This document shows, one piece after another, positions 4,475 through 34,101 of a DNA stretch of 64,000 nt (the stretch's first letter is position 1; each line of letters opens with the position of its first letter). Made by a program: the position numbers and the translations under genes. Origin of the DNA: an uncultured Gammaproteobacteria bacterium (GTDB lineage Bacteria; Patescibacteriota; Microgenomatia; Levybacterales; GWA1-39-11); contig CAYMYC010000001.1 in NCBI GenBank assembly GCA_964394645.1, positions 359,705-423,704 on the forward strand, given 5' to 3'. The notes under the pieces were generated by a model. That model was given only the letters and a program-made list of their open reading frames with translations. It searched no databases and was not told where the DNA came from.

Positions 4475-5586
4475 AATATATATACGTTTTTTATGCATTA
4501 TTTCTAATTATTTTTGTCATCTTTAGTTACCTTTTTATTGATCCAAATTTATCTTATTTAAGTACGCTTTTCACAGGGTTTTCTTTTACGAATCGAACAA
4601 TCACGTCTGTATTCTTTGTGTTCATTACTTCATTGTTTTTTGTGTTTTATGTATATTTTTTAAATGCAAAAAGAAGTAGTGCACCTTTGCTTAGGAATTT
4701 AGTTTTAATTTCAGCAGTATGTTTGATATTTTCATATCCTACAGTTACATCATATGACGTATTTAATTATATGACAACGGCGAGAGTTGCGTACTTCTAT
4801 CAAGAGAACCCATATATAGTTATGCCAAATGAATTTATTGGAGATGATATGTTGAGATACACAAGGGCAGCAAACAAAACAGCACTTTACGGACCAGTAT
4901 GGATACTATTAACTTTTATTCCTTATGTATTTGGATTTTCCAGTTTTCTTATCACACTTTTTTTCTTTAAGCTTCTAGTTGGTATTTTTTATTTAGGATT
5001 AGTCTTTCTTGTATTTCGTTTTTCAAAAAAAAACATACAAAAGACTTTATTTTTTGCACTTAACCCTCTTGTATTAATTGAAACCTTTGTAGCTGGTCAC
5101 AATGATGTGGTGATGATGTTTTTTGTATTTGCTTCTCTCTACTGTTTAGCAAAAAAAAATATATTCCTCTCTGTCATATTTCTTATCATGTCCATATGTA
5201 TTAAGTTTTCTACTCTATTTTTAATACCGATATATATACACACAATTTTTAAGATGGTTAAAAAAGATAAAATAGATTTTCAGAGAATATGGAAATATTC
5301 TTTGTTATTAATGGTAATAATATTTTTACTCTCTCCTATAAGGGAGGAGCTGTATCCATGGTATGCAATATGGTTTATACCTTTTGCGGCTCTTATAGAT
5401 GGATATAAAAATTTAAAGAGAATTACAATAGCACTTTGCTTCGGCTTACTTTTGTCTTATGTTCCGTACATGCTTACAGGAGCATACTCATTTAATACAT
5501 ATTTGGCAAAGCACATTATTATTCTTGTTCCAGTTGCGGTAACGGTTGTATTTGAGTTAATCTTTAAAAATGATAAAAATATATAG
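4471..5586 (+). CDS. polytopic membrane protein, GT-C-fold-like candidate
   Basis: 371 aa with about 10 TM helices. Loop motif 'SYDVFNYMTTAR'. ATGA overlap. Confidence 0.4.
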   Translation: MKYIYVFYALFLIIFVIFSYLFIDPNLSYLSTLFTGFSFTNRTITSVFFVFITSLFFVFYVYFLNAKRSSAPLLRNLVLISAVCLIFSYPTVTSYDVFNYMTTARVAYFYQENPYIVMPNEFIGDDMLRYTRAANKTALYGPVWILLTFIPYVFGFSSFLITLFFFKLLVGIFYLGLVFLVFRFSKKNIQKTLFFALNPLVLIETFVAGHNDVVMMFFVFASLYCLAKKNIFLSVIFLIMSICIKFSTLFLIPIYIHTIFKMVKKDKIDFQRIWKYSLLLMVIIFLLSPIREELYPWYAIWFIPFAALIDGYKNLKRITIALCFGLLLSYVPYMLTGAYSFNTYLAKHIIILVPVAVTVVFELIFKNDKNI

Positions 5587-7219
5587 ATACATTTTTCCCC
5601 AATCAGGGTTGCTTTTATCCATTTTAATTGGATTATTTTCTGTCTTTCCATTATTTCAGATAGGATTGCCTCCTACACATGATGGAGAGTACCACGTGAT
5701 AAGATTTTACGAATTTGATAAAACTTTACGAGACGGGAATTGGTATCCACTATGGGCATCAGATTTAAATTATATGTATGGTTCACCTCTTTTTAATTAT
5801 GTCTATCCACTTCCCAATTATTTTGCTTCACTTTTTCATTTTTTTGGCTTAAGTTTTATAGACGCATTCAAGCTAAATTTAATTATTGCAACTGTTATAG
5901 GATCGCTTTCATCATTTTTGTATATGAAAAAAAGGTATGGGGCTTGGAATGGTTTTATGACTTCTGTTTTTTATACATATGCACCTTATCATTTTTTGGA
6001 TATATATATTAGAGGGTCTGTGGGTGAAGTTTGGGCGCTGGCGTTATTCCCATTTGCATTGATTGCAATTGACAGTATACGGAAAAAACCTACTCTTAAG
6101 CACATTTGTTTGGGAGCAATTGCGTATGCACTCATTATTTTTTCTCATAATATCCTGGCAGTAATGTTTACAATTTTTGCACTTTTTTACTGCTTGCTTG
6201 TATTACATAATGCGAAAAGTAAACCGCGTGTTGCAGTTGCATTTTTGTGCTCATTTATAATAGCGCTTTTGGTGGCTAGTGTTTTTATTTTACCTGCGCT
6301 CTTTGAGCAGAGATATGTTGTTGGTTTACAGATTTTTCAGACAACGCGAAATTTTGCTGATCTTTATCAACTACTAATTCCGTCATGGGGTTCAGGGTTT
6401 TCAGGAGGGAGCATGTCTTCGCAAATGTCGTTTCAGATAGGTGCAGCTAATATTTTGGTTTTTATTATTATTCTGATTATTTTTCTTTTTCGGAAAGTAA
6501 AAAAAGAGAAAATATATATAGCTTTTTTTATGATTTGGTTTCTACTATCATGTTTTTTAGTCACCCCGTATTCCGCATTTCTATGGGAGAATATTTCGTT
6601 TATGGATAATTTTCAATTTCCATGGCGCGTTTTAAGCATAGGTGTATTATGTGGTGCAATTCTTGCTGGGTGTATCCCTCTTATATCCAAGTTAAAAGTT
6701 TTATATGTTATACTCATAATCGCATGTATTGGATTCTCTTATTCTTACGCTCGACCGCCTTATCTTTTACCAAGAGTAGACAGTGATCTTTACACAAAAT
6801 CAAATTTTATATATGGTACCAATAGTATTGGAAATTCATTTCAAACTAAATGGTTGCCCCAACAAGAAATATTATTTTCTTCAATAGCAAATGTTCCAGT
6901 AGTATCAGTATTTGAAAATTCGACAGAAAAAAAGTATAGAGTTAGTTTAAAAAAAGAAATGGATGTTGTATTTAACATTTCTTATTTTCCCGGTTGGTTT
7001 GCGCAAGTAGATGAAAAAAAAATAAGAGTAAAGCAGAGTGGGGGAAAGATTGCAGTCACTGTGCCAAAAGGAGATCATGAAATATACTTGAGACTTTCCG
7101 ATACAAAGCTAAGAGGCGTTGCAAAGTTAGTAAGCGTAATTACAATCAGTATTATAATCATCTTTTTCATGTCTTCTGTGGTACAATATTTACATAAGAA
7201 AAATGATAAGAATTTATGA
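5570..7219 (+). CDS. YfhO-like GT-C membrane glycosyltransferase candidate
   Basis: 549 aa. N-terminal multi-TM domain with 'HDGEYHVIRF' loop motif. Extracytoplasmic C-terminal domain with 'YFPGWFAQVDEKK' motif (nt 6983..6997), then a final TM anchor. Same layout in ORFs 20808 and 32071. Confidence 0.45.
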   Translation: MIKIYRYIFPQSGLLLSILIGLFSVFPLFQIGLPPTHDGEYHVIRFYEFDKTLRDGNWYPLWASDLNYMYGSPLFNYVYPLPNYFASLFHFFGLSFIDAFKLNLIIATVIGSLSSFLYMKKRYGAWNGFMTSVFYTYAPYHFLDIYIRGSVGEVWALALFPFALIAIDSIRKKPTLKHICLGAIAYALIIFSHNILAVMFTIFALFYCLLVLHNAKSKPRVAVAFLCSFIIALLVASVFILPALFEQRYVVGLQIFQTTRNFADLYQLLIPSWGSGFSGGSMSSQMSFQIGAANILVFIIILIIFLFRKVKKEKIYIAFFMIWFLLSCFLVTPYSAFLWENISFMDNFQFPWRVLSIGVLCGAILAGCIPLISKLKVLYVILIIACIGFSYSYARPPYLLPRVDSDLYTKSNFIYGTNSIGNSFQTKWLPQQEILFSSIANVPVVSVFENSTEKKYRVSLKKEMDVVFNISYFPGWFAQVDEKKIRVKQSGGKIAVTVPKGDHEIYLRLSDTKLRGVAKLVSVITISIIIIFFMSSVVQYLHKKNDKNL

Positions 7220-8277
7220 GAATTGCTATAGATAACTCCCCCATAACATCATCGCATAGGCTTGCTGATAAGATAAGAGGAACGGGTTTTTACATAAAAA
7301 ATCTAATTGATGCATTAGAGAAATATCATCCTGAACATGAGTACATTTTTTTTCAACAAGGGGAATTTCCACCTGATGCTGATATTTACCACTATCCATA
7401 TTTTGAGCCATTTTTTTTGTCCCTTCCTTCAAGGAAGTATGGTAAGTCAATTGTGACAGTCCACGATGTTATTCCACTTGTGATGCCTGAATTATTCCCA
7501 GTTGGTTTACGTGGAAAAATAAAATTTTTTATTCAAAAAAGAAGACTTTTAAAAATGGATGGTATTATTACAGACTCGCAAGCCTCAAAGGAAGATATTA
7601 TCAAGATCTGCCGCATAAAAAGTGAAAAAATAACAAGTATTCCCTTAGCCCATTCCCCGGTATACAAAAAAACAAAAATAAATTCCGCTGACAGAAAAAA
7701 AATTTTAAGTAAATACCATATTCCAGATGATTTTGTATTATATGTTGGAGACGCAACTCCAAACAAGAACTTAAAAAGGCTTATCAACACCGCTCTAAAT
7801 CTGAAAATTCCCCTTGTTATGGTAGGTGGCGCACTTGTAAGAAATAAAGTCACTACCCATCCATGGAATAGAGACCTTTTATATGTTCAAAAAATGGCAG
7901 AGTCGTATAATAATATTTATCTTTTGGGGTATGTTTCAGATGCTGATTTATCAGTTTTATACAATATATGCAAAGTGTTTGCTTTCCCTTCACTATACGA
8001 AGGGTTTGGGCTACCTGTATTAGAGGCTGCAAGCTCAGGTGCAGCCATTGTTACATCCCACAAAGGAAGTTTGAACGAGGTTATTGGTGATAGTGCTCGG
8101 ATTGTAGACCCGTATAATGAAGATAGTATTACGATTGCTGTAGGTGAGACATTTAATAGTAGGCACTTACGTGTTAAATTAGGAAAAATGGCTTACAAAA
8201 GATCTAAGAATTATGATTGGAAAAAAACTGCTGATGCTACAGTTGACGTATATGAAAAAATTTATACAAGGAAATAA
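7216..8277 (+). CDS. family 4 glycosyltransferase (GT-B fold)
   Basis: C-terminal EX7E region 'FPSLYEGFGLPVLEAASSGAAIVTS'. 'IAIDNS' GT4 N-domain start. Confidence 0.75.
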   Translation: MRIAIDNSPITSSHRLADKIRGTGFYIKNLIDALEKYHPEHEYIFFQQGEFPPDADIYHYPYFEPFFLSLPSRKYGKSIVTVHDVIPLVMPELFPVGLRGKIKFFIQKRRLLKMDGIITDSQASKEDIIKICRIKSEKITSIPLAHSPVYKKTKINSADRKKILSKYHIPDDFVLYVGDATPNKNLKRLINTALNLKIPLVMVGGALVRNKVTTHPWNRDLLYVQKMAESYNNIYLLGYVSDADLSVLYNICKVFAFPSLYEGFGLPVLEAASSGAAIVTSHKGSLNEVIGDSARIVDPYNEDSITIAVGETFNSRHLRVKLGKMAYKRSKNYDWKKTADATVDVYEKIYTRK

Positions 8278-9358
8278 AGATGTATTAACAGTACTTCTGA
8301 TTATATTTTTTTGGAGAGTGTATTTTATAATTACCCAATCAAACGCGTTTAGGATTGCGGAACGTGAAGGCTATTTAGGCTTTCTGAGGATAGCAAATTT
8401 TGACGGAAAGTATTACTTAAATATTGCTCAGTACGGTTATCAGGGTCTTGATCAGGCGTTTTTCCCTTTTTTCCCATTAGCGATACGAACGTTAATTTTT
8501 GTTGGTCTTGAACCAATCAGTGCAGCAATAATCATAGTTTCATTTTCACTTTTTTTATTTTTGTACTTTTTAGCAAAGCTTATTCAAATAGATTATCCTG
8601 GTAATACATACATTTGGGTTCTTTTGTTTTTCTTGTCGTTTCCAACATCATTTTTTTTAGGAAATATTTATACTGAAAGTTTATTTTTATTTCTCACTAT
8701 TTTATCTTTTTACAGTGTTAGGAAGAAAAAAATATTTTTAGGTGGGGTAATTGGTGGATTTGCTGCGGGCACAAGAATAGTAGGTATATTTTTAATCCCA
8801 GCATTAGCATATGAGATATATGAACAGCAAAAAAAACAAAAGAAAAAAAGTATAAAAGCATATGTTCCGCTTTTGTTTATTCCAGTAGGTCTTTTCAGTT
8901 ATATGGGTTACCTTTGGTATAGGTATTCTGATGCCCTACTCTTCGTACATCAACAACCTTCATTTGGAGCAGGAAGAAGTGGTGGGGAGATAATACTACT
9001 TCCACAGGTAATATATAGATACTTTAAAATATTTATTTCAGTTCCACATAACGAATTGCTCTTCATTATTTCCCTGATGGAGTTTTTAACTTTTTTTATA
9101 GGTATGATTATTTTGTTTTTGTGCTATAAAAGTAACATGAGAAAAAGCTATCTTATATTTTCTTTTAGCGTATTACTTTTCCCAACACTATCTGGTACTC
9201 TTTCTTCTTTGCCCCGCTACGCATTATGTGCTTTTGCTATTTTTATTTATCTAGGTCTGCTTAGGAGCAAAATATTTAAAATATTGCTCATAATTTCGGG
9301 GTTAATTGTTGAAAGCATTTTTGCTATTTTGTTTTTCCAAGGTTATTTTGTTGCGTAA
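8252..9358 (+). CDS. polytopic membrane protein, GT-C-fold-like candidate
   Basis: Multi-TM throughout. Loop motif 'ANFDGKYYLNIAQYGY'. Start uncertain: the track ORF starts at 8213, and ATG 8252 gives a shorter overlap with the upstream gene. Confidence 0.4.
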   Translation: MKKFIQGNKDVLTVLLIIFFWRVYFIITQSNAFRIAEREGYLGFLRIANFDGKYYLNIAQYGYQGLDQAFFPFFPLAIRTLIFVGLEPISAAIIIVSFSLFLFLYFLAKLIQIDYPGNTYIWVLLFFLSFPTSFFLGNIYTESLFLFLTILSFYSVRKKKIFLGGVIGGFAAGTRIVGIFLIPALAYEIYEQQKKQKKKSIKAYVPLLFIPVGLFSYMGYLWYRYSDALLFVHQQPSFGAGRSGGEIILLPQVIYRYFKIFISVPHNELLFIISLMEFLTFFIGMIILFLCYKSNMRKSYLIFSFSVLLFPTLSGTLSSLPRYALCAFAIFIYLGLLRSKIFKILLIISGLIVESIFAILFFQGYFVA

Positions 9359-9363
9359 TTATA

Positions 9364-10623
9364 ATGAGAAAGCATATAAAAAGAGTAATATCACACCCAC
9401 TCATATCAGGAAGTACGATAATATTTGTCGGGTCATTCGGTGGGAATATTTTAAATTATCTCTTTAATCTATCCGCGGGCAGACTACTATCTATTAATGA
9501 TTATAGAATACTTATCTCACTTACTGCCTTAATAACTCTTCTTATGCTTTTTCAATCAGCGTGGATAAATGTATTTACTAAGTTAGCAGCAAAATTTGCA
9601 CATCAGGGCACTAGCTCCCAAGGATATCTTATTCGTTCAGGGGTAAAACTGACATTTGGAGTCGGAGCAGCATATTTGGTTATGCTAATTCTATTAATCC
9701 ATCCTATATCTGCGTATTTACATATTGATAATACTCTTGTGGTGATAACAATGTTTTGTTCCGTATTTTTTGCAATTGCCGGATCATTGCCTGCGGGCAT
9801 TTTGCAAGGAAATTTAAAATTTGTTTGGGCATCGCTTTCAAATATTGCAGGAGCCCTGGGAAAGTTAATTATAGGAATTATTCTTATCGTTTTGGGATGG
9901 GGATTGTTTGGTGCAGCTCTGGCAGTACTATTTGCATTTATTATTCCGTATACATTCTCAATGATCTATGTACTAAAAAAATATAATTCAGAAAACGTAA
10001 AAAATAAGACACATGTTGATTTTTTTGCGGAGTTTAAAAAAATTTCTGGAGCATTTTTTATTGCTTCAATAGCCATTACTATTCTTCAAGGGACTGACGT
10101 AATTTTTGCAAGTCATTACTTGAATGATATAGAAGCGGGTCAATATGCGGCATTATCTCTTATGGGTAAGGCAATATTCTATATTACTTCGCCTATATAT
10201 TTTGTTTTTTTTCCATTGATTGCTCACAAAAAAGAAAAAAATGAAAGCACAGCCGGAACTATTCTTTTAGCATCTACTATCATTTTTCTGTGCTCTGGGC
10301 TTCTTACTTTCATATACTTTGCACTCCCTTCCCTTGTTTTAAGAGTGTTCTTCCCGGATCCTGTCTATCAACCACTAACTGCATATCTAGGATTTTATTC
10401 TATATACATCATGATATTTTCCTTTTGCTTCTTGTTGTATAATTTCTTTTTATCAGCAGGAAAGATAGGAGTATATAAAATTAACTTAAGTATCGCAATT
10501 TTATATATTTTACTTCTCTTTGTGTATCATAAGACAATTTGGGATTTTATAATTGTACTTACTTTTTCTTCATTTTTACTTTTGATATTACTTCTTGTAT
10601 ACTACAAGCATTATGAGCATTAA
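9364..10623 (+). CDS. polysaccharide biosynthesis flippase (Wzx-like, MOP superfamily)
   Basis: 419 aa with about 12 TM helices. N-terminal 'GSTIIFVGSFGGNILNYLFNLSAGRLLSINDYRILISL' resembles the PF01943 polysaccharide-biosynthesis-protein pattern. Confidence 0.55.
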   Translation: MRKHIKRVISHPLISGSTIIFVGSFGGNILNYLFNLSAGRLLSINDYRILISLTALITLLMLFQSAWINVFTKLAAKFAHQGTSSQGYLIRSGVKLTFGVGAAYLVMLILLIHPISAYLHIDNTLVVITMFCSVFFAIAGSLPAGILQGNLKFVWASLSNIAGALGKLIIGIILIVLGWGLFGAALAVLFAFIIPYTFSMIYVLKKYNSENVKNKTHVDFFAEFKKISGAFFIASIAITILQGTDVIFASHYLNDIEAGQYAALSLMGKAIFYITSPIYFVFFPLIAHKKEKNESTAGTILLASTIIFLCSGLLTFIYFALPSLVLRVFFPDPVYQPLTAYLGFYSIYIMIFSFCFLLYNFFLSAGKIGVYKINLSIAILYILLLFVYHKTIWDFIIVLTFSSFLLLILLLVYYKHYEH

Positions 10624-11356
10624 ATTTCTTTCTTTAGTTGTACCTACGTATCAGCAAGAAAAAAGTATTGTAAAAAACATTATTTCTCTTGAAAATTCGC
10701 TGCAAACAACAGGGATACCGTATGAAATATTAGTAGTTATTGATGGTGCGGTGGATAATACTCAAAAGAAGCTAAGCAAGATAAAAAGTAAGCATGTAAA
10801 AGTTTTATCTTATGAAAAAAATCAGGGTAAAGGATTCGCCGTAAGATATGGGATGCTGCAAGCAAAGGGAGATGTTATAGGATTTATCGATGGAGGATTT
10901 GATTTGGATCCGACGGGGATACTTATGTTGTTGAATCATATGGTTTGGTATAACGCTGATATCATAGTCGGTAGCAAGCTGCATCCAGTCTCTAAAGTTA
11001 AGTATCCATTTTATAGAAAAGTACTTTCTTGGGGGTACAGAACAATTACGCATCTTCTTTTTGGTTTCAAGGTAAGAGATACACAGGTTGGACTTAAACT
11101 ATTTAAAAAAAGAGTAGTACTTGATGTTTTTCCTAGATTAGTAGTAAAAAAATTTGCTTTTGATGTAGAGGTGTTAGCTGTATCGTATAGGATGGGTTAT
11201 AAAAGAATTTATGAAGCTCCAGTAAAACTTAATTTCCGTAATACGAGTACGATAAAGACAAGTACTTTTTGGGGAATCATATCACATATGCTTTGGGACA
11301 CGCTGGGTGTGTATTATAGACTCAAGATACGACGGTACTACGATAAAGCAAAATAA
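10613..11356 (+). CDS. family 2 glycosyltransferase, Dpm1/polyprenol-phosphate-sugar-synthase-like
   Basis: 'LSLVVPTYQQEKSI' and 'FIDGGFDLDP' DxD region. The ATG at 10613 is preferred over the track start at 10595. Confidence 0.65.
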   Translation: MSIKFLSLVVPTYQQEKSIVKNIISLENSLQTTGIPYEILVVIDGAVDNTQKKLSKIKSKHVKVLSYEKNQGKGFAVRYGMLQAKGDVIGFIDGGFDLDPTGILMLLNHMVWYNADIIVGSKLHPVSKVKYPFYRKVLSWGYRTITHLLFGFKVRDTQVGLKLFKKRVVLDVFPRLVVKKFAFDVEVLAVSYRMGYKRIYEAPVKLNFRNTSTIKTSTFWGIISHMLWDTLGVYYRLKIRRYYDKAK

Positions 11357-11358
11357 TA

Positions 11359-12480
11359 ATGCATGTATTAATATTAAATTGGAGAGATATAAAAAATCCA
11401 CAATCAGGCGGAGCGGAGGTTTTAACTCATGAGATATCCAAATATCTTGTACGAAAAAAACATGAAGTAACACTATTTACTTCTGAATTTCCAGGTAGCA
11501 AGAAGCAGGAAACAATAGATGGTGTAAAGATTGTAAGAGCAGGTCATCCTGATTTAAGACATGGGTTTTCATCTGTGCATTATAATGCTTATAAATATTA
11601 TAAAAAGAAGAAGTTCGGGAATATAGATGTTGTGATAGATGAGGTTCACGGGATTCCATTTTTCACGCCACTATATATAAAAGAAAAAAAAGCAGCACTT
11701 GTTTGTGAGTATGCAGGTGATCTTTGGAAATATGCAGTCCCCTTCCCATTTAGTATTCTTGGTCAATTATTTGAACGTACCTACCCATTTTTATATAAAA
11801 AGGACAAGATTATCACAATATCTAAATCTTCTAAGCACGAATTGTGTAAATTGTTTTCAGAAAAAATGATTAGTGTAGTATCTCCCGGGTGTTCCTTTCC
11901 AGTTATTCACAAAATACCTCAAAAAATATTTCCCTTAACGTTTGTGTTTATAGCACGACTCGGGAAGACAAAGGGTGTGGAGGACGCAATTGAAATGATG
12001 AAGATAATAATAAAGTCAGAGAGGGATTCTAAACTATATATTATAGGAAGAGGAGATGGGAAATACATTGATAAGCTCAAAAAACAGATTTATAAAGATG
12101 GGCTTGGTTCAGCAATTCATTTTTTCGGTTTTGTAAGTGATCAAGAAAAATGTGAGATAATTGATAGGTCACATATATTAATTGCCCCATCCAGGAAAGA
12201 GGGATGGGGTTTAACGGTGCATGAGGTTGGAGCACGCGGAGTGCCAACAGTAGGCTACGATGTTCCAGGGTTAAACGAGGTTATAATAAAAAATGTTAAT
12301 GGTGAAATTTGCCGTACGAACACCCCTTACGAGTTAGCTAGAGTATCACTTTCTCTCTATAGAGATAAAATAAGATACAAGAAGCTGCAGAATGGTGCAC
12401 TGTCTGAGAGAATGAAGTTTACTTGGGATAAAACAGGGGAAACTTTCCTGAAACTTATTAGTGAGTATGAAAAAAAATAA
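11359..12480 (+). CDS. family 4 glycosyltransferase
   Basis: 'SRKEGWGLTVHEVGARGVPTVGYDVPGLNEVI' EX7E-type C-terminal motif. Confidence 0.75.
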   Translation: MHVLILNWRDIKNPQSGGAEVLTHEISKYLVRKKHEVTLFTSEFPGSKKQETIDGVKIVRAGHPDLRHGFSSVHYNAYKYYKKKKFGNIDVVIDEVHGIPFFTPLYIKEKKAALVCEYAGDLWKYAVPFPFSILGQLFERTYPFLYKKDKIITISKSSKHELCKLFSEKMISVVSPGCSFPVIHKIPQKIFPLTFVFIARLGKTKGVEDAIEMMKIIIKSERDSKLYIIGRGDGKYIDKLKKQIYKDGLGSAIHFFGFVSDQEKCEIIDRSHILIAPSRKEGWGLTVHEVGARGVPTVGYDVPGLNEVIIKNVNGEICRTNTPYELARVSLSLYRDKIRYKKLQNGALSERMKFTWDKTGETFLKLISEYEKK

Positions 12481-15580: not shown

Positions 15581-15596
15581 TCTTGCATGATTCCAA

Positions 15597-25016: not shown

Positions 25017-25072
25017 GGAATTGTATTATATTTGTATTTTGTTATAATTGCTACTATGCCTACTTATCTAAC

Positions 25073-26749
25073 ATGCGTAATAACATATTAACTTTCCTCA
25101 AAGTTTTCCCTGTATTTTTTTTCATAATATTCATCGCAACCTTTGGTTTACTACAAGGGTACTTTCAGCAAGATGAGTGGATGGGCATTGCAGATGTGAT
25201 GCTCTCATACTCTCGTCCATGGTGGCATCCGTATTTACCTTGGGTACATTTTTCACCAATTGGAGTATTTATTTGGAGCACATTATATAAAGTATTTCAT
25301 CTTCAAGCACAATTCTATTTTTTAATTCAACTTATTGTTCATGCTTCTTGTGCAACGCTTGTTTATATTTTAACTGTAAAAATAACCAAAAACAAAGCAA
25401 TAGCCATTTTAAGCGGTCTTCTTTTTCTAACCAACGCGCGTGCACACCAAGCTTTTACGCACCTAGCGATTTTTCATACTACAACTTTGGCCATGTTCTT
25501 CATACTGCTTTTTTTTGTTTTCCTATCTAGTATCAAAAATACAGTCTTTTCATTTAAGAGCACATTAATACTGACTTTAATATTTATTGCTACTGTTGCT
25601 ACCCGCGAAGAGGGGTTTATAATTATTCCAATTGCAGCCGTATATATATTTTGTTTTGATAAAGATAAAATTAACAAAAAAAATATTATTCCGCTAGCCC
25701 TGTTTTCTATTGGAGTCATTGCATTTCTGGGTGTAAGAATGTTTGCACAACTCTTAAATCCGGTTCCAGTTCCTTTGGAATATCAAATTGCAGGGTCCGG
25801 TGTTAAATATAACATGGCGACAGTTCCTGTAAAATTTGTTGTACAAAATTTAATTTATTCGGAAAGATTTGCTTTGTTTTTTATTGCGAATACTCAAAAG
25901 GCGTATCCAGAAATAGATTCGTTTTTTACTAGTCATGCACCAATTATGGATGCAGGATTCTTTTATGTATTTAGCATGATGGCTATCATTTTTGCCTTTT
26001 GGTTATGGCGTGTTAGGCCTAGGCGTATAGGTCCTATGCTCATTTTCTTATCCACATGGATATTTGCAAACGCATTTATACTTTCATTTGTGGGAAGGCA
26101 GCTCTCGGTAATTGAACCAAGATATTTGTATTTTTCAAGCTTTCCAGTTCTTTGCCTATTATCAATTTTTCTCTATACCATGTTTATATCGCAAGATAAA
26201 CTTAAAATTATTAATGTGATAAAGAAAATATTTGTAATAGTTATTTTAGGTTTTTTAGTTTTTACCTCAGTTGAAGAAATTAGAGTGGCAGTTCGAAGAC
26301 AAATAGTTGATGGAGAAGCCAAGAAAAAGATTATTAAGAGTTTGCTTACTGTGCACCCTACATTATCCAGGAATACGATCTTTTATGTTAGGTGCAAAGT
26401 TGAGTGTTATCGCAATACTCGCGATTTTGGTATTTCGAATCAAAATGTGTTACCTTTTTCTTCGGGACCCGGAATGAATTTTTTGGTGACATATGCAAGC
26501 GTTCAAGGACAGGAAAAAGAATGGGGGCAATTTTTTACCAATATGTTTCTCTTTAATACATTTTCAGAAGATTATAAAAAAATTGGTGACAGGAGTTTTG
26601 GCTACTTTGTTACGAAAAGTAAGCTTGAAGAAACGCTTAAGAAAAACAAATTGTCAAAAGACATTGTTGTTGCATTAGAAATAGATGAGTCTACCTATAC
26701 TTTTATTGATATTTCAGAAGAATTTAGAAAAACTATTTTCCAAAATTAA
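25073..26749 (+). CDS. GT-C-fold-like polytopic membrane protein
   Basis: Multi-TM. Loop-1 'YFQQDEWMGIADV' DE motif. The track start at 24989 would overlap the antisense gene. ATG 25073 is preferred. Confidence 0.45.
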   Translation: MRNNILTFLKVFPVFFFIIFIATFGLLQGYFQQDEWMGIADVMLSYSRPWWHPYLPWVHFSPIGVFIWSTLYKVFHLQAQFYFLIQLIVHASCATLVYILTVKITKNKAIAILSGLLFLTNARAHQAFTHLAIFHTTTLAMFFILLFFVFLSSIKNTVFSFKSTLILTLIFIATVATREEGFIIIPIAAVYIFCFDKDKINKKNIIPLALFSIGVIAFLGVRMFAQLLNPVPVPLEYQIAGSGVKYNMATVPVKFVVQNLIYSERFALFFIANTQKAYPEIDSFFTSHAPIMDAGFFYVFSMMAIIFAFWLWRVRPRRIGPMLIFLSTWIFANAFILSFVGRQLSVIEPRYLYFSSFPVLCLLSIFLYTMFISQDKLKIINVIKKIFVIVILGFLVFTSVEEIRVAVRRQIVDGEAKKKIIKSLLTVHPTLSRNTIFYVRCKVECYRNTRDFGISNQNVLPFSSGPGMNFLVTYASVQGQEKEWGQFFTNMFLFNTFSEDYKKIGDRSFGYFVTKSKLEETLKKNKLSKDIVVALEIDESTYTFIDISEEFRKTIFQN

Positions 26750-26750
26750 C

Positions 26751-27500
26751 ATGAATTTTCACGCTCTCTTCCTACAATTGAACGAAATCTACAAAAAAAA
26801 GGGTTTTTTATCTTTGCTGACCTTTTTACTTATTGGGTTCAACAATGCATTTATTAATAAATACATTAGAGGTTCGTTTAGTCAAAAAGGAGAAGACTTA
26901 ATATTAGAGAAAATATTTACACGTAAGAATAGTGGTTTTTATGTTGATGTTGGAGCAAACAATCCAGATATTTTTAACAACACGAAAAAATTCTATTTAA
27001 AAGGGTGGAGGGGAATAAATATTGAACCTAACCCAATGCTATTAAACAGGTTTAAAATCGAAAGGAAGAGAGATATAAATATAAATTTTGGAATTGGCAA
27101 AAAAAGAGGTTTTGCATCTTTTTATGAGTTTGAGATAAGTAGCATTTCTACTTTTAGTAAAAATGATAAAGAGAATAAAATTAAATTAGGCTACAGATTA
27201 AAGAGCGAATCCAAAATAAAAGTATATAGATTAGAGGATATTATGAGAAAATTCTGTAAGAAAAAAATTGATTTTATGAATGTAGACACAGAAGGAATGG
27301 ATCTTGAAGTTTTAAAAAGTAATGATTGGAAAATGTTTAGACCAAAAGCTGTATGCGTGGAAACAGGCGATGTCTGGTCTACACTATCAAATGAGTTGGA
27401 GAATAATAAAAAGAGACTAATAGACAGATTTATGAAAAATAACAGTTATAGAATTTTTTATTCAAACGATTTAAACACAATATATGTAGAAAATGATTAA
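26751..27500 (+). CDS. FkbM-family methyltransferase
   Basis: 'FYVDVGANNPDIFNNT', 'GINIEPNP', 'IDFMNVDTEGMDLEVL' are hallmark PF05050-type motifs. ATG 26751 lies right after the upstream stop. Confidence 0.7.
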   Translation: MNFHALFLQLNEIYKKKGFLSLLTFLLIGFNNAFINKYIRGSFSQKGEDLILEKIFTRKNSGFYVDVGANNPDIFNNTKKFYLKGWRGINIEPNPMLLNRFKIERKRDININFGIGKKRGFASFYEFEISSISTFSKNDKENKIKLGYRLKSESKIKVYRLEDIMRKFCKKKIDFMNVDTEGMDLEVLKSNDWKMFRPKAVCVETGDVWSTLSNELENNKKRLIDRFMKNNSYRIFYSNDLNTIYVEND

Positions 27501-28156
27501 CGAGGTAGCATGTCCCTATAAATTGATTTATCATATTTGGCTTTTTTTACTTTTTCTGCTACAAAATACATGCCTCTTGAAAGGGGTTTAAATCTTCCAT
27601 ATTCCCCGTATGAAAGAATAGAAAATCCATGAGACTGTAACAGCGTTGAGAGACTTTTCTTAGTAAAGAATCTAATGTGTTGAGAGTAGGGATTGTAAAC
27701 AATCTCAAATCCTATAAGTGCAATCACAAGATTTTTTATTGTCCCATGATAGGGGGTGCTAATAAAAATTTTCCCGCCTTTTTTGAGGCAACGATTCATT
27801 TCAAGTAGGTAATTGGAAACATCAAATATATGTTCAATTACGTCTGCAGCTAAAATAAAATCAACGCTCTCATTTTTTATTGGAATCTTTTCATCTCCAG
27901 AAAGAGCGTAGAACTTAGCCTTAGGGAATCTTTTTTTTGCTTTATTTATAGCATAAGAGGAAATATCTATTCCAACAATTTTGTAAGGATTTACTTTTAG
28001 AAATTCTTCTATGTATCTACCTTCCCCACACCCAAAGTCTAGTATGGTACTATTCTTGGAAGGAAGAACACTTTTTATTTTTGGCCATTTCCATTTAAAA
28101 TCATGACCTTCTGCTAAGCCGCCTTCTTTCCACCATAAGTCATAAATTTTCTTCAT
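27497..28156 (-). CDS. class I SAM-dependent methyltransferase
   Basis: 'ILDFGCGEGRY' motif I. 'ADVIEHI'. Antisense to the locus. Confidence 0.7.
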   Translation of the reverse strand: MKKIYDLWWKEGGLAEGHDFKWKWPKIKSVLPSKNSTILDFGCGEGRYIEEFLKVNPYKIVGIDISSYAINKAKKRFPKAKFYALSGDEKIPIKNESVDFILAADVIEHIFDVSNYLLEMNRCLKKGGKIFISTPYHGTIKNLVIALIGFEIVYNPYSQHIRFFTKKSLSTLLQSHGFSILSYGEYGRFKPLSRGMYFVAEKVKKAKYDKSIYRDMLPR

Positions 28157-28256
28157 ACAAAATTATACCATAATTTCTAATGCAAATTAGAGAGGAATAT
28201 ATTATAATCACTGATATGCAAAAATTCTGCCAAAAAATTGTATACGTCTATTAACG

Positions 28257-29123
28257 ATGAAGAGTAAAATTTTAGTTTCGATAATAATCCCTACGTATAA
28301 GAACTCTCTAAGTATTATAGATATTCCTCTTGAAAGTATTAGCAAGCAGACCTGCTCTAAACATTTATATGAAATTATTATTTCAAATAATCATTGGTCT
28401 AAAAGCGAATCGTTGAAAAGTAAGATTTTAAAATATAAAGCTAAATTTATTGAGGTTTACGGAAAGCCTCCTCAGGTATGTAATCAAATTAATGCAGGTG
28501 TTAAGGTTGCAAAAGGAAAATACATTTTAATTTTAGACCATGACGTTGAGCTAAGCCCAAGATTAATAGAAAATTTCTCTAAGCTTGAGAAAAGATTTTC
28601 AAGTGTAGACTCATGGTACATGCCATATAAAGTAATTGCTAGAGGATTTTTAAATAAAGTCAGAAATTTTGAAGAAAAATTTTATCAACATTCTATCATT
28701 GCAGCACCTAGAATTACTAAGAAATCAGTTATTTTAAAAACTGAAAAGATGTATGACCCAATTCTAAATGGTGGTCCCGCAGATTGGGATTTTACAAATC
28801 AACTCAGAGAGATTTCTGCTAAATTTAAATACATTGATGAATACGCTTTTCATCACGAAGAGGCTTTAACTTTTTGGGAGTTTATTTTAAAGAAAAAAAT
28901 TTATGCAGAAGGTGGAGAGTTATATAAAGAAAAATGGGCAAAAAAAAATAAAAAAATATATGATGAAATTGTTAAAAAACAGTACTCGCCCACTTATAGA
29001 CTGATACAAATTTTTATAGAAAATGGAAAATGGAAATTTTTTAACTTGCAAAATTACTTGTTGTTTTTAATAATGAAAAGCTTAATGGCTGTAAATTATT
29101 TTTACTATGTCAAGAAAAGATAA
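28257..29123 (+). CDS. family 2 glycosyltransferase
   Basis: 'VSIIIPTYKNS', 'ILILDHDVEL' DxD. Confidence 0.65.
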   Translation: MKSKILVSIIIPTYKNSLSIIDIPLESISKQTCSKHLYEIIISNNHWSKSESLKSKILKYKAKFIEVYGKPPQVCNQINAGVKVAKGKYILILDHDVELSPRLIENFSKLEKRFSSVDSWYMPYKVIARGFLNKVRNFEEKFYQHSIIAAPRITKKSVILKTEKMYDPILNGGPADWDFTNQLREISAKFKYIDEYAFHHEEALTFWEFILKKKIYAEGGELYKEKWAKKNKKIYDEIVKKQYSPTYRLIQIFIENGKWKFFNLQNYLLFLIMKSLMAVNYFYYVKKR

Positions 29124-29790
29124 AATTTTTACTAATGAGCCAAGAAAAGTATATATTTTGGGAGCTGGAGGTATGGCTAGTGAGGTGCTTGAGATGTATA
29201 GGTCGTCTGGGCGCATAGATGAAATAGAAGGGTTTGTTGTTAGCGAGAAGAAGCGAGCAGGAAAGATAAAAAATAAAAAAATTTTTATAGATAAAGAGAT
29301 TACTTTAGAAAATAAGCGCGGTTTTTTTATTGGTGCGATTGGTAACCCAATAAGAAGAAAATGGATTGAAAAACTTATAGATAGAGGTGGCGAATTTGAC
29401 AATATTATTCATGCTACTGCAGTCATAGGGAAAAGTGTTAAGCATGGAGTGGGAAGTATTATTTGTGCCAATTCAGTTCTTACAGATAATATAGTTATTT
29501 CAGATCATGTAATTATCAATGTGGGGGCAACAATAAACCATGATTGTAAGATTGGAAGTTATGTAACAATTGGTCCAGGAGTACATATTGGAGGTAGAGT
29601 ATCGATAGGTGACGGAACCTTTATAGGAATAGGAGTTTTGATAAAAGAACAAATAAAGATTGGCAGTAATGTTTTTATAGGTGCCGGAGCTGTAGTTGTA
29701 GATGATATTCCTGACAATGTACTCGTGTATGGATCCCCGGCAAGAGTAATAAAAAAAATCGATGAAGATTATTTAAAGGATTTAATATAG
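29107..29790 (+). CDS. NeuD/PglD-family sugar N-acetyltransferase (LbH)
   Basis: N-terminal 'VYILGAGGMASEVLEM' Rossmann-like domain plus C-terminal hexapeptide repeats ending 'VYGSPARVIKK'. Confidence 0.7.
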   Translation: MSRKDKIFTNEPRKVYILGAGGMASEVLEMYRSSGRIDEIEGFVVSEKKRAGKIKNKKIFIDKEITLENKRGFFIGAIGNPIRRKWIEKLIDRGGEFDNIIHATAVIGKSVKHGVGSIICANSVLTDNIVISDHVIINVGATINHDCKIGSYVTIGPGVHIGGRVSIGDGTFIGIGVLIKEQIKIGSNVFIGAGAVVVDDIPDNVLVYGSPARVIKKIDEDYLKDLI

Positions 29791-29792
29791 GA

Positions 29793-30884
29793 ATGATAAA
29801 TGTAACAAAAACATACTTACCTCCCTTAAACCTCTATATAAAGTATCTTAGGAAAATATGGAAAAATAATTGGGTAACAAATGACGGCGAGTTTAGCCAG
29901 CAATTAGAGGCGGAATTAAAGAAATTTCTTGAGGTTAAAAATATAGTTTTACTTGGAAATGGAACTCTCGCCTTGCAACTTACATATAGAGCTTTAGATT
30001 TAAAGGGTGAGGTGATAACTACTCCTTTCACTTTTCCAGCGACTACTAATTCTCTAATTTGGGAAGGAATAAAACCGGTATTTGTAGACATAGATCCCAA
30101 TACGTTTAATATAGATCCAAAAGAAGTCGAGAAAAAGATTAATAAAGACACATCTGCAATACTCGCAGTTCATGTCTTTGGTAACCCATGTGATGTAGAA
30201 AGTCTTTCAAAGATAGCTAAGAAATATAACTTGAAACTTATTTACGATGCGGCTCATGTATTTGGGGTTGAGTATAAAAGAAAGTCAATATTGGAATGGG
30301 GTAATGCAAGTACCCTAAGTTTCCATGCGGCAAAAACTTTTCATACGATTGAAGGAGGAGCAGTTGTAAGTAGAAATAAGATTACAAGAGATAAAATTAA
30401 ATTGCTTTCAAATCATGGTATTAAATCAAAGGATGAAATAGTGATGGCAGGCATAAATGCCAGAATGAATGAGTTTGAGGCAGTGATGGGATTATTGCAG
30501 TTAAAGAATTACAGAAGTAGGGCGGAGAAGAGAAAGAAAATTTATGATTTTTACGCCTCTCAATTTAGAAACAATCCACGATTAAAACTACAAAGTTTAA
30601 ATAAAAATTTAACTTATTTTACATACCCTTATTTCCCAGTTTGCTTTGAGAGCGAAAAGATTACAAAGAAAGTTTTAGGTGTTCTTTTAAGAAATGCAAT
30701 AATTCCGAGAAGATATTTTTATCCTTCCATTCACGAATTTTCCTATATTAATAAAAAATATAATTTGAAAAACAGTGAAAAAATTTCTCATACAATTTTA
30801 TGTCTTCCGCTTTATGAAGAACTTTCAATGCAAGAAGCATCAACAATAGTTAATTTAGTAGATAAGGTTATTAAATCAACTTAA
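29793..30884 (+). CDS. DegT/DnrJ/EryC1/StrS-family PLP-dependent sugar aminotransferase
   Basis: 'SFHAAKTFHTIEGGAVV' PLP-lysine region. 363 aa. Confidence 0.75.
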   Translation: MINVTKTYLPPLNLYIKYLRKIWKNNWVTNDGEFSQQLEAELKKFLEVKNIVLLGNGTLALQLTYRALDLKGEVITTPFTFPATTNSLIWEGIKPVFVDIDPNTFNIDPKEVEKKINKDTSAILAVHVFGNPCDVESLSKIAKKYNLKLIYDAAHVFGVEYKRKSILEWGNASTLSFHAAKTFHTIEGGAVVSRNKITRDKIKLLSNHGIKSKDEIVMAGINARMNEFEAVMGLLQLKNYRSRAEKRKKIYDFYASQFRNNPRLKLQSLNKNLTYFTYPYFPVCFESEKITKKVLGVLLRNAIIPRRYFYPSIHEFSYINKKYNLKNSEKISHTILCLPLYEELSMQEASTIVNLVDKVIKST

Positions 30885-30897
30885 TCCGCATATCATT

Positions 30898-32067
30898 ATG
30901 AGTACTAGTGGTAAAAAAACCATAATTTATCTTAATTATTCCCCTTACGAAAATTCTGGAAAGATACTCGATTATTTATTAGAAAACTTTGAGAATGTTT
31001 GCCTTTTTTCAATTGGGTTTTATAATTTGGAAAACAAAAAGAATTATAACAATCTTTCAATCTACAAAAATGGAATACTTATAAAAACATATTCATTATT
31101 TCAAATCCCCATTTCCTCACATTTAGTTTATTTATTAATTCCGGTTCGTTCCGTGATTACATTTATTGAAATATTCGTTTATTCCTACTGGTTAAGCAAA
31201 AAATATAAAAGAATTGATGCTTATTTTACAGCGAATGCGTTTACAGCATGGGTTGGTATGCTGCTTAAAAAGGCAGGAGTTGTTAAAAAGACTGTGTTTT
31301 GGGTGTGGGACTATTATCCTCCAATTCATGAAAGCAAATCTGTAATGCTTATGAGATATGTGTATTGGCAGTTTGACAAAGTAAGTTCACATTCAGATGT
31401 TGTGGCATTTGTAAATAAAAGACTTCTCAATTTAAGAAAAGATATGGGGATTTATAAAAACAACGTGAAATACCCCATTGTACCAATTGGAGCTGACAAA
31501 ATTGTTTTGTCAAAAAATAGAGAAATAAAGAATAGAAAGCCTGTTTTTGGATTTATTGGTGTTTTAAAAAAGACTCAAGGAGTGGATATAGTATTTGATA
31601 ATGCAACAAGACTCATAAGAGAATTTGGCAGTGTTAAGTATGAAATAGTAGGTTCTGGTCCTGATGAAATATATTTTAAGGCAAGAGCTAAGAAGTCTAA
31701 AATTAATACAAAGTTTTATGGATACTTAGAAGGTGATTCGTTTAATGATGTACTAAGGGAATGCACGATTGGGATTGCAACATACACTTCTGATGCAGGG
31801 AATGTTTCTCAGTATGGGGATCCTGGGAAAATTAAACGGTATTTAAGCTTGGGGATTCCAATTATAACTACTGATCTTATAGAATTCGCAGAAGAAATTG
31901 AGAGATCAGGCGCAGGCATAGTGGTTGATTATAATAACGGAGAGGCATTTATTGAAGCAGTCAATAAAATTATGAAAAACCAGGGAGTTTATAGTAAAAA
32001 TGCTTACAAGTTAAGTCAAAAATTCTATTACAGGAAAATTTATCCTAAAATGTTTGATACTATATAA
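30898..32067 (+). CDS. GT-B-fold glycosyltransferase (non-canonical GT4-like)
   Basis: 'IGIATYTSDAGNVSQYGDPGKIKRYLSLGIPIITT' parallels ORF 18222's 'IGLAPYRN...DAGKIRAYCASGLPVVSS'. Confidence 0.5.
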   Translation: MSTSGKKTIIYLNYSPYENSGKILDYLLENFENVCLFSIGFYNLENKKNYNNLSIYKNGILIKTYSLFQIPISSHLVYLLIPVRSVITFIEIFVYSYWLSKKYKRIDAYFTANAFTAWVGMLLKKAGVVKKTVFWVWDYYPPIHESKSVMLMRYVYWQFDKVSSHSDVVAFVNKRLLNLRKDMGIYKNNVKYPIVPIGADKIVLSKNREIKNRKPVFGFIGVLKKTQGVDIVFDNATRLIREFGSVKYEIVGSGPDEIYFKARAKKSKINTKFYGYLEGDSFNDVLRECTIGIATYTSDAGNVSQYGDPGKIKRYLSLGIPIITTDLIEFAEEIERSGAGIVVDYNNGEAFIEAVNKIMKNQGVYSKNAYKLSQKFYYRKIYPKMFDTI

Positions 32068-32070
32068 ATA

Positions 32071-34101
32071 ATGGGTGCCATACAAAAATATCTTGCTTTT
32101 TGTTTTATAGTTATATTTTTTCTGGTAGTTTTTAGAGGGTGGTTTTCATCTGGTGTGTTATCCAGTGGAGATTGGCCCTATCTTTACCCCTCCTCAATTA
32201 GTCAGATAGTTTCATTTTCTTCTTGGGATGTTTTATTTAATAATGGCATGGGTCAGAGCTCATTGCCCAAGATTTGGTTTGATTCCTATGCTTTAAGTCT
32301 TGTAAAGATCGCAAACACACTCTCATGGCCTGTATTTGAGAGACTAATTTGGTTTTTTCCGTATGTGCTCCTATCTTTCAGCGGCGCATATTTACTCTCA
32401 AGAAAAATTGGACTAAGTTACTATTCCAACTTGTTGTCTGGACTCATTTACAGTAGTAACACATACATAATTTTGATAGTTTCAGGAGGGCAGGTGGGCG
32501 TATTTACTGCATATGCTTTTCTCCCTTATGCTTTTTACGGACTCTATCATTTATTTAATAATTTTTCTATTAAAAATTCTGTAATTTTTGGGTTACTCAC
32601 CTCTATAGTTATTCTTCTTGATTTACGAATAGGATATATGTTTCTTTTGGCTGTTTGCGTATTTTCCTTGTTTTATCTTTTACTTAATTCAAAAGACCTA
32701 GTAAAAAAAGCTATTTACTTATTTATTATTCCCGGGGTGATTGCATTTCTTCTCCATTTTTACTGGATTTTTCCAATTCTTTTAATGGGTAGAAGTCCTG
32801 TTTCTGAGCTAAGTGATATTTATGCGTCATCTGATTCACTTAGTTTTTTTAGCTTTGCAAAACTGGAAACTGCTGCAGGGTTGCTGCATCCCAATTGGCC
32901 AGAAAATATATTTGGGAAAGTATCATTTTTAAGGCCAGAGTTTTTAATTCTTCCAATTCTTGGATTCATGTCATTATTGTTCATTGATAAAGAATCTAAG
33001 CCGCTAAAATTATCTATATTGTCTTTTACAGTTTTGGGACTTGTGGGAATTTTTCTTTCAAAAGGTACAAATGATCCTTTTGGGGAAGTTTATAGGGCAA
33101 TGTTTGATTTTCTTCCTGGTTTTGTTATGTTTCGAGATCCTACCAAATGGTATCTGTTTATTGCACTTTTTTTTTGCATTTTGATTCCTTACTGTTTAGA
33201 AAAATTATCAAAGATTAACGTGACAAGCAAAACAATTAAAAATAGTAGTTTTATTTTCTTTGTTCTCTTTTTTGTTTTTTGGAATTTCCTTATAAAGGAC
33301 GCATATAACGGTGTTTTGAAAGGTACACTCGTCTCAAGAAATATTCCTGAAAATTATAAGACTCTAGCTTCAGACTTGCAAAAAGATGGTAAATTTTACA
33401 GGACATTATGGGTCCCACAGTTTTCTACATTTGGATATGTTTCTGGCTTGAAACCGGCTATTCCAGCTATGGATTTCTTTTCTGCAACGTCTCAAAAAGA
33501 TTTAAAAAAGAAGTTAAAACACCCCGTAACTGAAAAGATCTTAAAAGAGGCTTCAGTAAAATACATTATTATTCCAGATGATATAGATGGCAAGATTTTT
33601 ACAAATGGTAGAAAATATGATGAAAGGGTTTACCAAAAAACTTTAAAAGACCTTGAGGGCATAGAGTATTTATCAAAAACAAATGAGTACGGAAAGCTAG
33701 TAGTTTTTGAGTTAAAAAATCCGAAAGACCATTTTTGGAGCACATCAGCAAATGTCGGAATTGCATATGAATCCAAACACCCCACAAGGTATGTGATTTC
33801 TTTAAGTAATGTTAAGAAGGGAGACAAGTTAATTTTTACTGAAAGTTATGATAGGTTTTGGAGCGCTACAAGAAAACCTAATGACCCATCTCAGAGAGCA
33901 ATGATACCAAGTGTGGTTTATAAATCAGGCAATCAAGGGTTAAATAGTTTTGTCCTTCCAGACAATGGTTCATACATGCTTGAAGTGTACTACCAGCCCC
34001 AAAAATGGATAAATAGTGGAATTTTGGTGAGCGGGTTTGCTTTGGCCGCTATAATAGTTTTTTTAAGCTTTAAGACATGGAAAGGATTTAAAAAATCATG
34101 A
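32071..34101 (+). CDS. YfhO-like GT-C membrane glycosyltransferase candidate
   Basis: 676 aa. Multi-TM N-domain with 'LSSGDWPYLYP'. Extracytoplasmic domain with 'YDRFWSATRKP' (nt 33847..33861). Terminal TM anchor. Confidence 0.5.
   Translation: MGAIQKYLAFCFIVIFFLVVFRGWFSSGVLSSGDWPYLYPSSISQIVSFSSWDVLFNNGMGQSSLPKIWFDSYALSLVKIANTLSWPVFERLIWFFPYVLLSFSGAYLLSRKIGLSYYSNLLSGLIYSSNTYIILIVSGGQVGVFTAYAFLPYAFYGLYHLFNNFSIKNSVIFGLLTSIVILLDLRIGYMFLLAVCVFSLFYLLLNSKDLVKKAIYLFIIPGVIAFLLHFYWIFPILLMGRSPVSELSDIYASSDSLSFFSFAKLETAAGLLHPNWPENIFGKVSFLRPEFLILPILGFMSLLFIDKESKPLKLSILSFTVLGLVGIFLSKGTNDPFGEVYRAMFDFLPGFVMFRDPTKWYLFIALFFCILIPYCLEKLSKINVTSKTIKNSSFIFFVLFFVFWNFLIKDAYNGVLKGTLVSRNIPENYKTLASDLQKDGKFYRTLWVPQFSTFGYVSGLKPAIPAMDFFSATSQKDLKKKLKHPVTEKILKEASVKYIIIPDDIDGKIFTNGRKYDERVYQKTLKDLEGIEYLSKTNEYGKLVVFELKNPKDHFWSTSANVGIAYESKHPTRYVISLSNVKKGDKLIFTESYDRFWSATRKPNDPSQRAMIPSVVYKSGNQGLNSFVLPDNGSYMLEVYYQPQKWINSGILVSGFALAAIIVFLSFKTWKGFKKS

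Follow-up and report, generated by a model that had tools for sequence, protein, structure and literature searches.

How Patescibacteria (Candidate Phyla Radiation, CPR) build their cell cover with tiny genomes is largely unexplained, and our literature search found no paper linking these bacteria to GT-C glycosyltransferases. The question is raised in a concrete form by a stretch of 64,000 nucleotides of contig CAYMYC010000001.1 (assembly GCA_964394645.1), called the window below, in which a Levybacteria-like genome spends ~49 kb on a single glycan locus that encodes at least five GT-C enzymes. We ask here what three membrane proteins of this locus are and what they may do. These are A (5570..7219, 549 amino acids), B (20808..22997, 729 amino acids) and C (32071..34101, 676 amino acids), all encoded on the plus strand. 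An earlier note had read them as three paralogous enzymes of the YfhO family. We find that A, B and C are predicted integral-membrane glycosyltransferases of the GT-C fold (GT-C_A), that their relationship is ancient, and that B and C belong to a conserved cassette with two further membrane proteins.

Shared layout and conserved residues

Each of the three proteins starts with a polytopic N-terminal block, continues with a soluble block and ends with a single last hydrophobic helix, as seen from hydropathy and, for B and C, from the secondary structure of AlphaFold models. A is a short GT-C protein of the PTPS_related/YfhO type, with 11 predicted transmembrane (TM) helices, an outside beta-sandwich of ~117 amino acids (residues 396-512) and a terminal TM anchor at 7106..7195 (around residues 513-542, by hydropathy), with a tail rich in lysine and arginine. 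B has the GT-C fold without a curated family, and its layout is AftD-like: 11 TM helices, an outside alpha/beta domain plus a beta-sandwich, and TM12. C, also of GT-C fold, has an AftD/STT3-like layout that is arranged as in B. The terminal TM helices are seen by DSSP in the AlphaFold models as H698-728 in B (22899..22991, residues 698-728) and H643-675 in C (33997..34095, residues 643-675). An outside domain of 200 to 300 amino acids had been expected in each protein; this is right for B (~270 amino acids) and C (~230), and too large for A.

The open reading frames (ORFs), motif strings and coordinates given in the earlier note are all present exactly as written there, on the plus strand. Their conservation was followed in family alignments of 67 sequences for A, 61 for B and 67 for C, 195 in total. 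In the first outside loop, A carries HDGEYH (5678..5695, residues 37-42), with H37, D38 and G39 invariant in 67/67 sequences and E40 in 65/67. The corresponding motif of B is GGDDTRFYY (20913..20939, residues 36-44), where G36, G37, D38 and D39 are invariant in 61/61, and that of C is SSGDWPY (32161..32181, residues 31-37), where D34 is invariant in 67/67 and G33 is found in 64/67. The candidate catalytic acids are D38 in A, which aligns with D34 of C, D38 and D39 in B, and D34 in C.

As for the C-terminal beta-sandwich, A carries YFPGW (6983..6997, residues 472-476), with F473 and W476 invariant and the Y, P and G kept in at least 90% of sequences. B has YHPGW (22707..22721, residues 634-638) at the start of a beta-strand (638-642) of the predicted model, with W638 invariant in 61/61. 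In C the motif reads YDRFW (33847..33861, residues 593-597); W597 is invariant in 67/67 and D594 is found in 62/67, the motif being otherwise unconserved and its middle two positions variable. The five-residue Y..W motif reported earlier is thus present in all three proteins and aligned in the same columns, but the C family keeps only D594 and W597 of it. Two invariant residues are thus common to all three families: an Asp in the first outside loop, directly behind TM1, and a Trp in the C-terminal beta-sandwich (W476 in A, W638 in B, W597 in C).

Ancient homology of the three families

Profile-profile comparison (hhalign) aligns B with C end to end over 620 columns (probability 99.8, E-value 1.7e-29), and A with C end to end over 504 columns (probability 98.3, E-value 1.4e-14). 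The match between A and B (probability 94.3, E-value 9.8e-8, 221 columns) is limited to the TM core. The Wzx flippase encoded in this locus, taken as a membrane-protein control, gives probabilities of 0.3-0.5 against all three profiles. These alignments put the loop-1 acidic motifs, the Y-x-x-x-W motifs and the terminal helix into matching columns, and reveal in C an insertion of ~110 amino acids relative to A, corresponding to an alpha/beta sub-domain which A does not have.

Pairwise BLASTP is near noise, with E-values of 0.026 for A-B, 0.22 for A-C and 2e-4 for B-C, the last being limited to the C-terminal soluble region. Because a strong profile-profile match goes together with BLASTP values of this kind, the three proteins are best seen as ancient relatives and not as recent paralogs. 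Judged by their profiles, they are true homologs that diverged anciently into three separate families. A recent duplication within the locus was considered and is ruled out by the BLASTP values, and by the fact that each protein has its own ortholog family and a distinct conserved neighbourhood. From the earlier picture of three paralogs in one locus, and from the pairwise alignment suggested with it, the homology therefore stands at the level of profiles, and the word paralogs overstates it.

Placement by family models

In terms of curated models, A passes Pfam YfhO (PF09586) with 44.1 bits (cut-off 28.5, E-value 1.3e-11) and PTPS_related (PF10131) with 33.9 bits (cut-off 26.4), the latter being a family of the GT-C clan CL0111 with uncharacterised function. 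PF10131 is found in all listed orthologs of A, PF09586 in only about half. Coverage of the YfhO profile is restricted to positions 53-383 and 763-821 of 835, with the middle ~380 positions absent. The C-terminal fragment of A (residues 449-507), which includes YFPGW, matches profile positions 763-821 with an E-value of 6e-6. Since the C-terminus of A matches the end of the YfhO profile, its YFPGW beta-sandwich and terminal helix are a genuine YfhO-type feature.

A different picture is seen for the other two proteins. B has no match in Pfam or NCBIfam, and so neither a YfhO nor a PTPS_related match. C reaches 18.8 bits on GT-C_AftD (PF11847), below its cut-off of 26, a model on which B and A score 8.1 and 8.5 bits; C also has a weak match to PTPS_related (13 bits, E-value 0.036, below cut-off) and none to Pfam YfhO. 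Nor does Pfam find YfhO in C-terminal fragments taken from B and C, and the YfhO-type C-terminal element is visible in them only through profile-profile alignment to A or C, not with the Pfam model. NCBIfam gives nothing meaningful for A, B or C, and profile searches of PDB sequences give nothing for any of the three families. Among all family members scanned with Pfam, the commonest model is GT-C_AftD, with weak matches in 10/61 B and 12/67 C sequences (best E-values 2e-4 and 1.4e-6, respectively), and YfhO is found in 0/61 and 2/67. STT3 (PF02516) is not matched by A, B or C at E-values up to 1, nor by members of the B and C families at E-values up to 0.1. The motif WWD[YWFN]G, or even WW[DE], is found in 0/61 B, 0/67 C and 0/67 A sequences.

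The B family is large. Searched against 1.84 billion representatives, its profile finds 612 clusters (50% identity) with an E-value of at most 1e-30; a limit of 1e-10 gives 2,638 clusters, and one of 1e-3 gives 4,304. Some variants of the architecture are seen, namely proteins of ~1,230 amino acids with two matched stretches and others of ~1,040 amino acids with an N-terminal extension of roughly 300 amino acids.

The assignment of all three proteins to the YfhO family, for which a search with PF09586 had been proposed, is therefore right for A and fails for B and C. By these sequence models, only A is YfhO/PTPS_related-like, and it is a typical representative of a family that is known but has no characterised function. 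B and C form new GT-C families, set apart from curated family models only; unannotated GT-C families neighbouring YfhO are already noted in the literature, and B or C may belong to that group. In terms of annotation, A should be called YfhO/PTPS_related-like, and B and C AftD-like GT-C family proteins.

Predicted fold and membrane topology

AlphaFold models were built for B and C from the family alignments, with a predicted local distance difference test (pLDDT) score of 88.5 and a predicted template modelling (pTM) score of 0.90 for B, and 90.8 and 0.89 for C. In structure comparison, the top 19 matches of both models are all GT-C enzymes. B scores highest with AftD (18.2, 565 residues aligned), followed by STT3B (17.2), Pmt4 (15.5), AglB (13.2), PglB (13.1), AftA (12.3) and ArnT (10.4). 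For C, the scores are 19.9 with STT3B, 19.8 with Pmt4, 17.8 with both PglB and AftA, 17.3 with AftD, 16.7 with AglB and 13.7 with ArnT, the AftD alignment being the longest (533 residues). Foldseek with the C model places AftD first (E-value 7.5e-8), then STT3 and PglB. No chain described as YfhO is among the structure matches, and our literature search found no experimental YfhO structure.

The published AftD structure has a GT-C super-domain of 11 TM helices, with juxtamembrane helices between TM1 and TM2, a broken TM3 and an extended TM7, followed by a soluble periplasmic domain and a single re-entry helix, TM12; both termini are cytoplasmic. The helix order of the B and C models reproduces this description helix by helix. 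The broken TM3 of B has S135-P136, which are kept in at least 90% of sequences.

Family-wide densities of lysine plus arginine follow the same scheme in the three families. They are 0.23-0.35 at the N-terminus, 0.05-0.07 in the Asp-bearing loop 1, 0.19-0.51 in the short loops assigned to the inside and 0.00-0.11 in the outside loops (0.04-0.11 in the long conserved ones), with the invariant LDLR turn of C (0.25) as the sole exception. The soluble domains have 0.12-0.13 and the C-terminal tail 0.31-0.46. As these densities alternate according to the positive-inside rule, the soluble domain is placed outside, and the N- and C-termini inside, in all three families. The profiles, the models of B and C and these counts bear out the general description in the earlier note, of GT-C-type membrane proteins with a C-terminal domain and a terminal anchor helix, and the counts put this domain outside the cell and not in the cytoplasm.

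A conserved cassette around B and C

GTDB species genomes were scanned with the B profile, giving 36 loci, of which 31 were used for synteny, and all proteins of the window were mapped onto them. B and C are part of a cassette conserved across Levybacteria and Gottesmanbacteria; A is not. Directly after B lies m352 (22994..24052, plus strand), a membrane protein of 352 amino acids with an N-terminal TM helix, an outside domain of ~165 amino acids and 5 TM helices, whose GTG start overlaps the stop of B. It adjoins B in 27/31 related loci. A C-family gene lies at most 10 kb from B in 25/31, often abutting the B-m352 pair. The order B-m352-C is directly abutting in L017, L018, L020, L023 and L029-L032, and a methyltransferase stands between m352 and C in L016, L021, L025, L036 and L044.

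After C comes s78 (34098..34334, plus strand), of 78 amino acids and three hydrophobic helices, whose ATG overlaps the stop of C (ATGA). It is called as a gene in L005, and homologs are found in 17 other loci, directly after C or after an epimerase that follows C. Neither m352 nor s78 has a match in Pfam, NCBIfam, PDB or the A, B and C profiles. s78 might serve as a small subunit, or be a candidate flippase for lipid-linked sugars. Because they share a conserved cassette, B and C probably act with these two membrane proteins.

As for A, A-family genes are found in 0/31 B neighbourhoods. It has a conserved context of its own, with the order GT2, epimerase, DUF5667, MptA_B-like, (an unknown gene), A, GT4 and Wzx. 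The named homologs are nearly all from Patescibacteria, chiefly Levybacteria and Gottesmanbacteria.

In the window, ~8 kb (24042..32067) separate m352 from C, a segment absent from the loci where B-m352-C abut. It contains a GDSL/SGNH hydrolase on the minus strand, a 586-amino-acid protein with 10 TM helices, a Methyltransf_21 protein, a minus-strand methyltransferase, a GT2, a PglD_N-type acetyltransferase, a DegT aminotransferase and a GT4, and looks like an inserted amino-sugar and acylation module. The polytopic ORF at 24989..26749 has no convincing relation to the A, B or C profiles.

Some variations of the cassette were found. The B-m352 pair is tandemly duplicated, as B-m352-GDSL-B'-m352', in L011, L012, L013 and L015 (at ~10-18 kb in L011-L013 and ~0.2-7.3 kb in L015). 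In L008 and L014, B is followed by a fusion gene whose product has ~1,340 amino acids and carries a GDSL domain. Lastly, L010-L013, L015, L016, L019, L022-L027, L035 and L039 are contigs with a Patescibacteria-type cassette titled "uncultured Gammaproteobacteria bacterium", a title which is probably a placeholder or a mislabel.

The surrounding glycan locus

A single co-directional glycan locus of roughly 49 kb extends over the window from ~1 to 49.5 kb. It encodes methyltransferases, NAD-dependent epimerases/dehydratases, hexapeptide acyltransferases, a PglD_N-type acetyltransferase, a DegT aminotransferase and a nucleotidyltransferase, together with many GT4 and six GT2 genes. A Wzx-type flippase (Polysacc_synt; PF01943 on the identical gene) is encoded at 9364..10623, and the 3' end of the locus is formed by an initiating phosphoglycosyl transferase (Bac_transf; PF02397, E-value 1.6e-61) at 48851..49486, both on the plus strand.

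Further GT-C proteins are present, all on the plus strand. A polytopic protein of 371 amino acids directly upstream of A (4471..5586) is probably a GT-C of MptA/MptB type: its syntenic orthologs in L045 and L046 match PF26314 (MptA_B_family), and the window copy itself has only 27.5 bits on TIGR03459 (the MptA model), below cut-off. Two GT-C proteins of PMT_2 type, of 443 amino acids (12461..13792) and 484 amino acids (41710..43164), pass PF13231 with 36.1 and 29.1 bits (cut-off 26.1). Two polytopic proteins without annotation align with the A profile, namely 715..2196 (493 amino acids, 10 TM; probability 93 over 107 columns) and 8213..9358 (381 amino acids, 7 TM; probability 91 over 201 columns), and may be truncated GT-C-like proteins or polymerase candidates. 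In total, at least five GT-C-clan proteins of the window are above a curated cut-off or confirmed by fold, with 2-4 weak candidates in addition, so that the three extracytoplasmic GT-C enzymes counted earlier are an undercount.

Downstream of C, m1040 (38586..41708, plus strand) is a conserved protein of 1040 amino acids and ~18 TM helices, with sub-threshold Wzy_C and GtrII-like stretches, and a further, weak candidate for the GT-C clan. In synteny it is paired with an overlapping GT2 at 37751..38611. In the same region, a plus-strand gene of 179 amino acids with only the N-terminal domain of a GT4 (35427..35966) precedes a complete GT4 of 375 amino acids (36018..37145). The same split pair turns up in many of the related loci, and so reflects a conserved arrangement instead of a gene that has been disrupted.

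Beyond the locus, 49556..64000 encodes a DUF4012 protein (650 amino acids), RecO, a class II aminoacyl-tRNA synthetase and a dcw-type cluster with MraW, a PBP transpeptidase, a Mur ligase and a MurA-like EPSP_synthase-family protein. The presence of this cluster indicates that the organism makes peptidoglycan.

Proposed mechanism and alternative explanations

We consider it likely that A, B and C are anciently diverged GT-C (GT-C_A) members of a Wzx-type surface-glycan cluster. A polyprenyl-diphosphate-linked backbone would be built in the cytoplasm and then flipped by Wzx, two steps suggested by the presence of the flippase and the initiating transferase. Each GT-C enzyme would bind a polyprenyl-phosphate-linked sugar in the outer leaflet, as its fold implies, and the loop-1 Asp may act as the catalytic or metal-binding acid for sugar transfer. 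The sugar would go onto a growing or finished surface glycan held by the outside domain, where the beta-sandwich with its invariant Trp is a likely glycan-contacting or packing element. The GT-C battery would in this way elaborate or attach the flipped glycan outside the membrane.

Several points weigh against this proposal. All database names of the family members are "hypothetical", and function is read from sequence and predicted fold. The topology is derived from hydropathy, AlphaFold helices and the positive-inside rule, a simple method, and it holds only if the helix after loop 1 (72-87 in B, 65-82 in C) is juxtamembrane and does not span the bilayer, as is the case in AftD and ArnT. The three-dimensional models cover B and C, and the fold of A is placed by sequence profiles. 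Finally, no polyprenyl-phosphate-sugar synthase or GtrA-type flippase was recognised in the window, the rest of the genome being outside the search, and the supply of donor is for this reason unexplained. Genes for such partners may lie in another part of the genome. Polyprenyl-phosphate-sugar synthases without TM helices occur in other organisms.

The earlier proposal, in which all three are YfhO-family enzymes, each adding one sugar to a teichoic-acid-like polymer or a glycolipid and fed by CsbB/GtrB-type GT2s of the locus, appears quite improbable. It can draw on the CsbB/GtcA/YfhO three-component logic, well documented in Firmicutes, on the match of A to the YfhO model and of its C-terminus to the profile end, and on the IMG label of a fragment of A, "membrane protein YfhO". 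The locus also has its six GT2 genes, and two short ones (2213..2986 and 10595..11356) give weak partial matches to Dol-P-hexose, PpgS, ArnC and PgfS models. These matches lie far below cut-offs, however, and no GT2 could be retained as a polyprenyl-phosphate-sugar synthase. A TM helix is predicted in none of the six GT2 ORFs, and the C-terminal TM hairpin of GtrB/CsbB is missing from all of them; all score under every NCBIfam cut-off, and a GtrA-like small ORF with 4 TM helices is found on neither strand of the window. The feeding of three steps by such GT2s thus finds no counterpart here. B and C are without a YfhO match, and A is without the middle 380 positions of the profile. Among the ORFs scanned in the window, none was recognised as a gene for teichoic-acid synthesis, and the locus resembles a Wzx-dependent heteropolysaccharide pathway, not a teichoic-acid one.

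Our main rival explanation, still an unlikely one, is that B, C or both resemble an oligosaccharyltransferase or ligase, moving a finished polyprenyl-diphosphate-linked glycan en bloc to an acceptor in the cell wall or to a protein (S-layer, pilin), in the manner of PglB, AglB and STT3. The initiating phosphoglycosyl transferase and Wzx are present without a clear WaaL/LCP-type ligase among the scanned ORFs, which fits this idea, and STT3 and PglB score equally high in structure comparison. Yet a WWDYG-type motif is found in 0/195 family members, there is no STT3 Pfam match, and AftD, an enzyme that works with a polyprenyl-monophosphate donor, is the match with the longest alignments and has the best Foldseek E-value. 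Two oligosaccharyltransferase-type enzymes in one cassette would also be unusual. We regard it as very improbable that one or more of the three are scaffold, export or Wzy-like polymerase proteins which merely keep a GT-C-like fold. The locus is without an annotated Wzy polymerase, but several other unassigned polytopic proteins of the locus could be the polymerase, and the loop-1 acids are invariant in all three families at a position typical of catalytic GT-C acids.

The proposal of GT-C transferases in a Wzx-type cluster can be extended, in a speculative and rather unlikely form, to a single machine. B-m352-(methyltransferase)-C-s78 would then be an undescribed multi-subunit apparatus of Microgenomates type, in which two AftD-like GT-Cs and two membrane partners assemble or attach the surface glycan outside. 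With at least three further GT-Cs of the locus it would form an extracytoplasmic assembly line for glycans, of mycobacterial style, in an ultra-small bacterium with a reduced genome. Either B or C might be the missing ligase or oligosaccharyltransferase.

Comparison with known systems

PTPS_related (PF10131) includes A above its cut-off, but the family has no characterised member, and thus names A without explaining it. YfhO (PF09586), the extracytoplasmic GlcNAc transferase for lipoteichoic and wall teichoic acids in Bacillus, Staphylococcus and Listeria, shares with A a score above the cut-off, the C-terminal beta-sandwich with YFPGW and the last TM helix. It also belongs to the GT-C clan and has outside-facing catalysis, as A presumably does. 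Unlike YfhO, A does not have the large middle outside region, B and C have no match to it, and no CsbB-type GT2 or GtrA partner is found in the window.

In the three-component systems (GtrA/GtrB/Gtr-type; CsbB/GtcA/YfhO; GT136 with PPPRS and a MATE flippase), a GT-C with a C-terminal carbohydrate-binding-type domain modifies a glycan outside. A likeness is also seen in the GT2 at 37751..38611, which overlaps a large membrane protein with a weak GtrII stretch. On the other hand, no TM-anchored synthase, GtrA, SMR or MATE flippase is recognised beside A, B and C, and m352 and s78 have no counterpart in those systems. Compared with STT3, PglB and AglB, the three proteins are without the WWDYG motif and the STT3 Pfam match, and they have 11 TM helices instead of 13, with an extra terminal TM anchor.

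The closest layout is that of AftD, the mycobacterial arabinofuranosyltransferase (PF11847, GT-C_AftD/DUF3367; PDB 6W98 and 6WBX), with its super-domain of 11 TM helices, outside soluble domain, one re-entry helix and cytoplasmic termini. A, B and C follow the layout of the first twelve helices of AftD. B and C differ in being half its size, with one beta-sandwich against the three carbohydrate-binding modules of AftD, and in ending a few residues past TM12, without TM13-16 or the module that binds acyl carrier protein. Sequence identity is 10-13%, both proteins score below the Pfam cut-off, and the host here is a Patescibacterium without arabinogalactan.

This kind of enzyme is known. New variants of it are seen in the families of B and C, in their mini-AftD layout and in the cassette B-m352-C-s78. 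They are a lead for CPR envelope biology and not a new class of system. B and C define sizeable families without curated annotation and, together with m352 and s78, are testable candidates for glycosylation of the CPR envelope outside the membrane.

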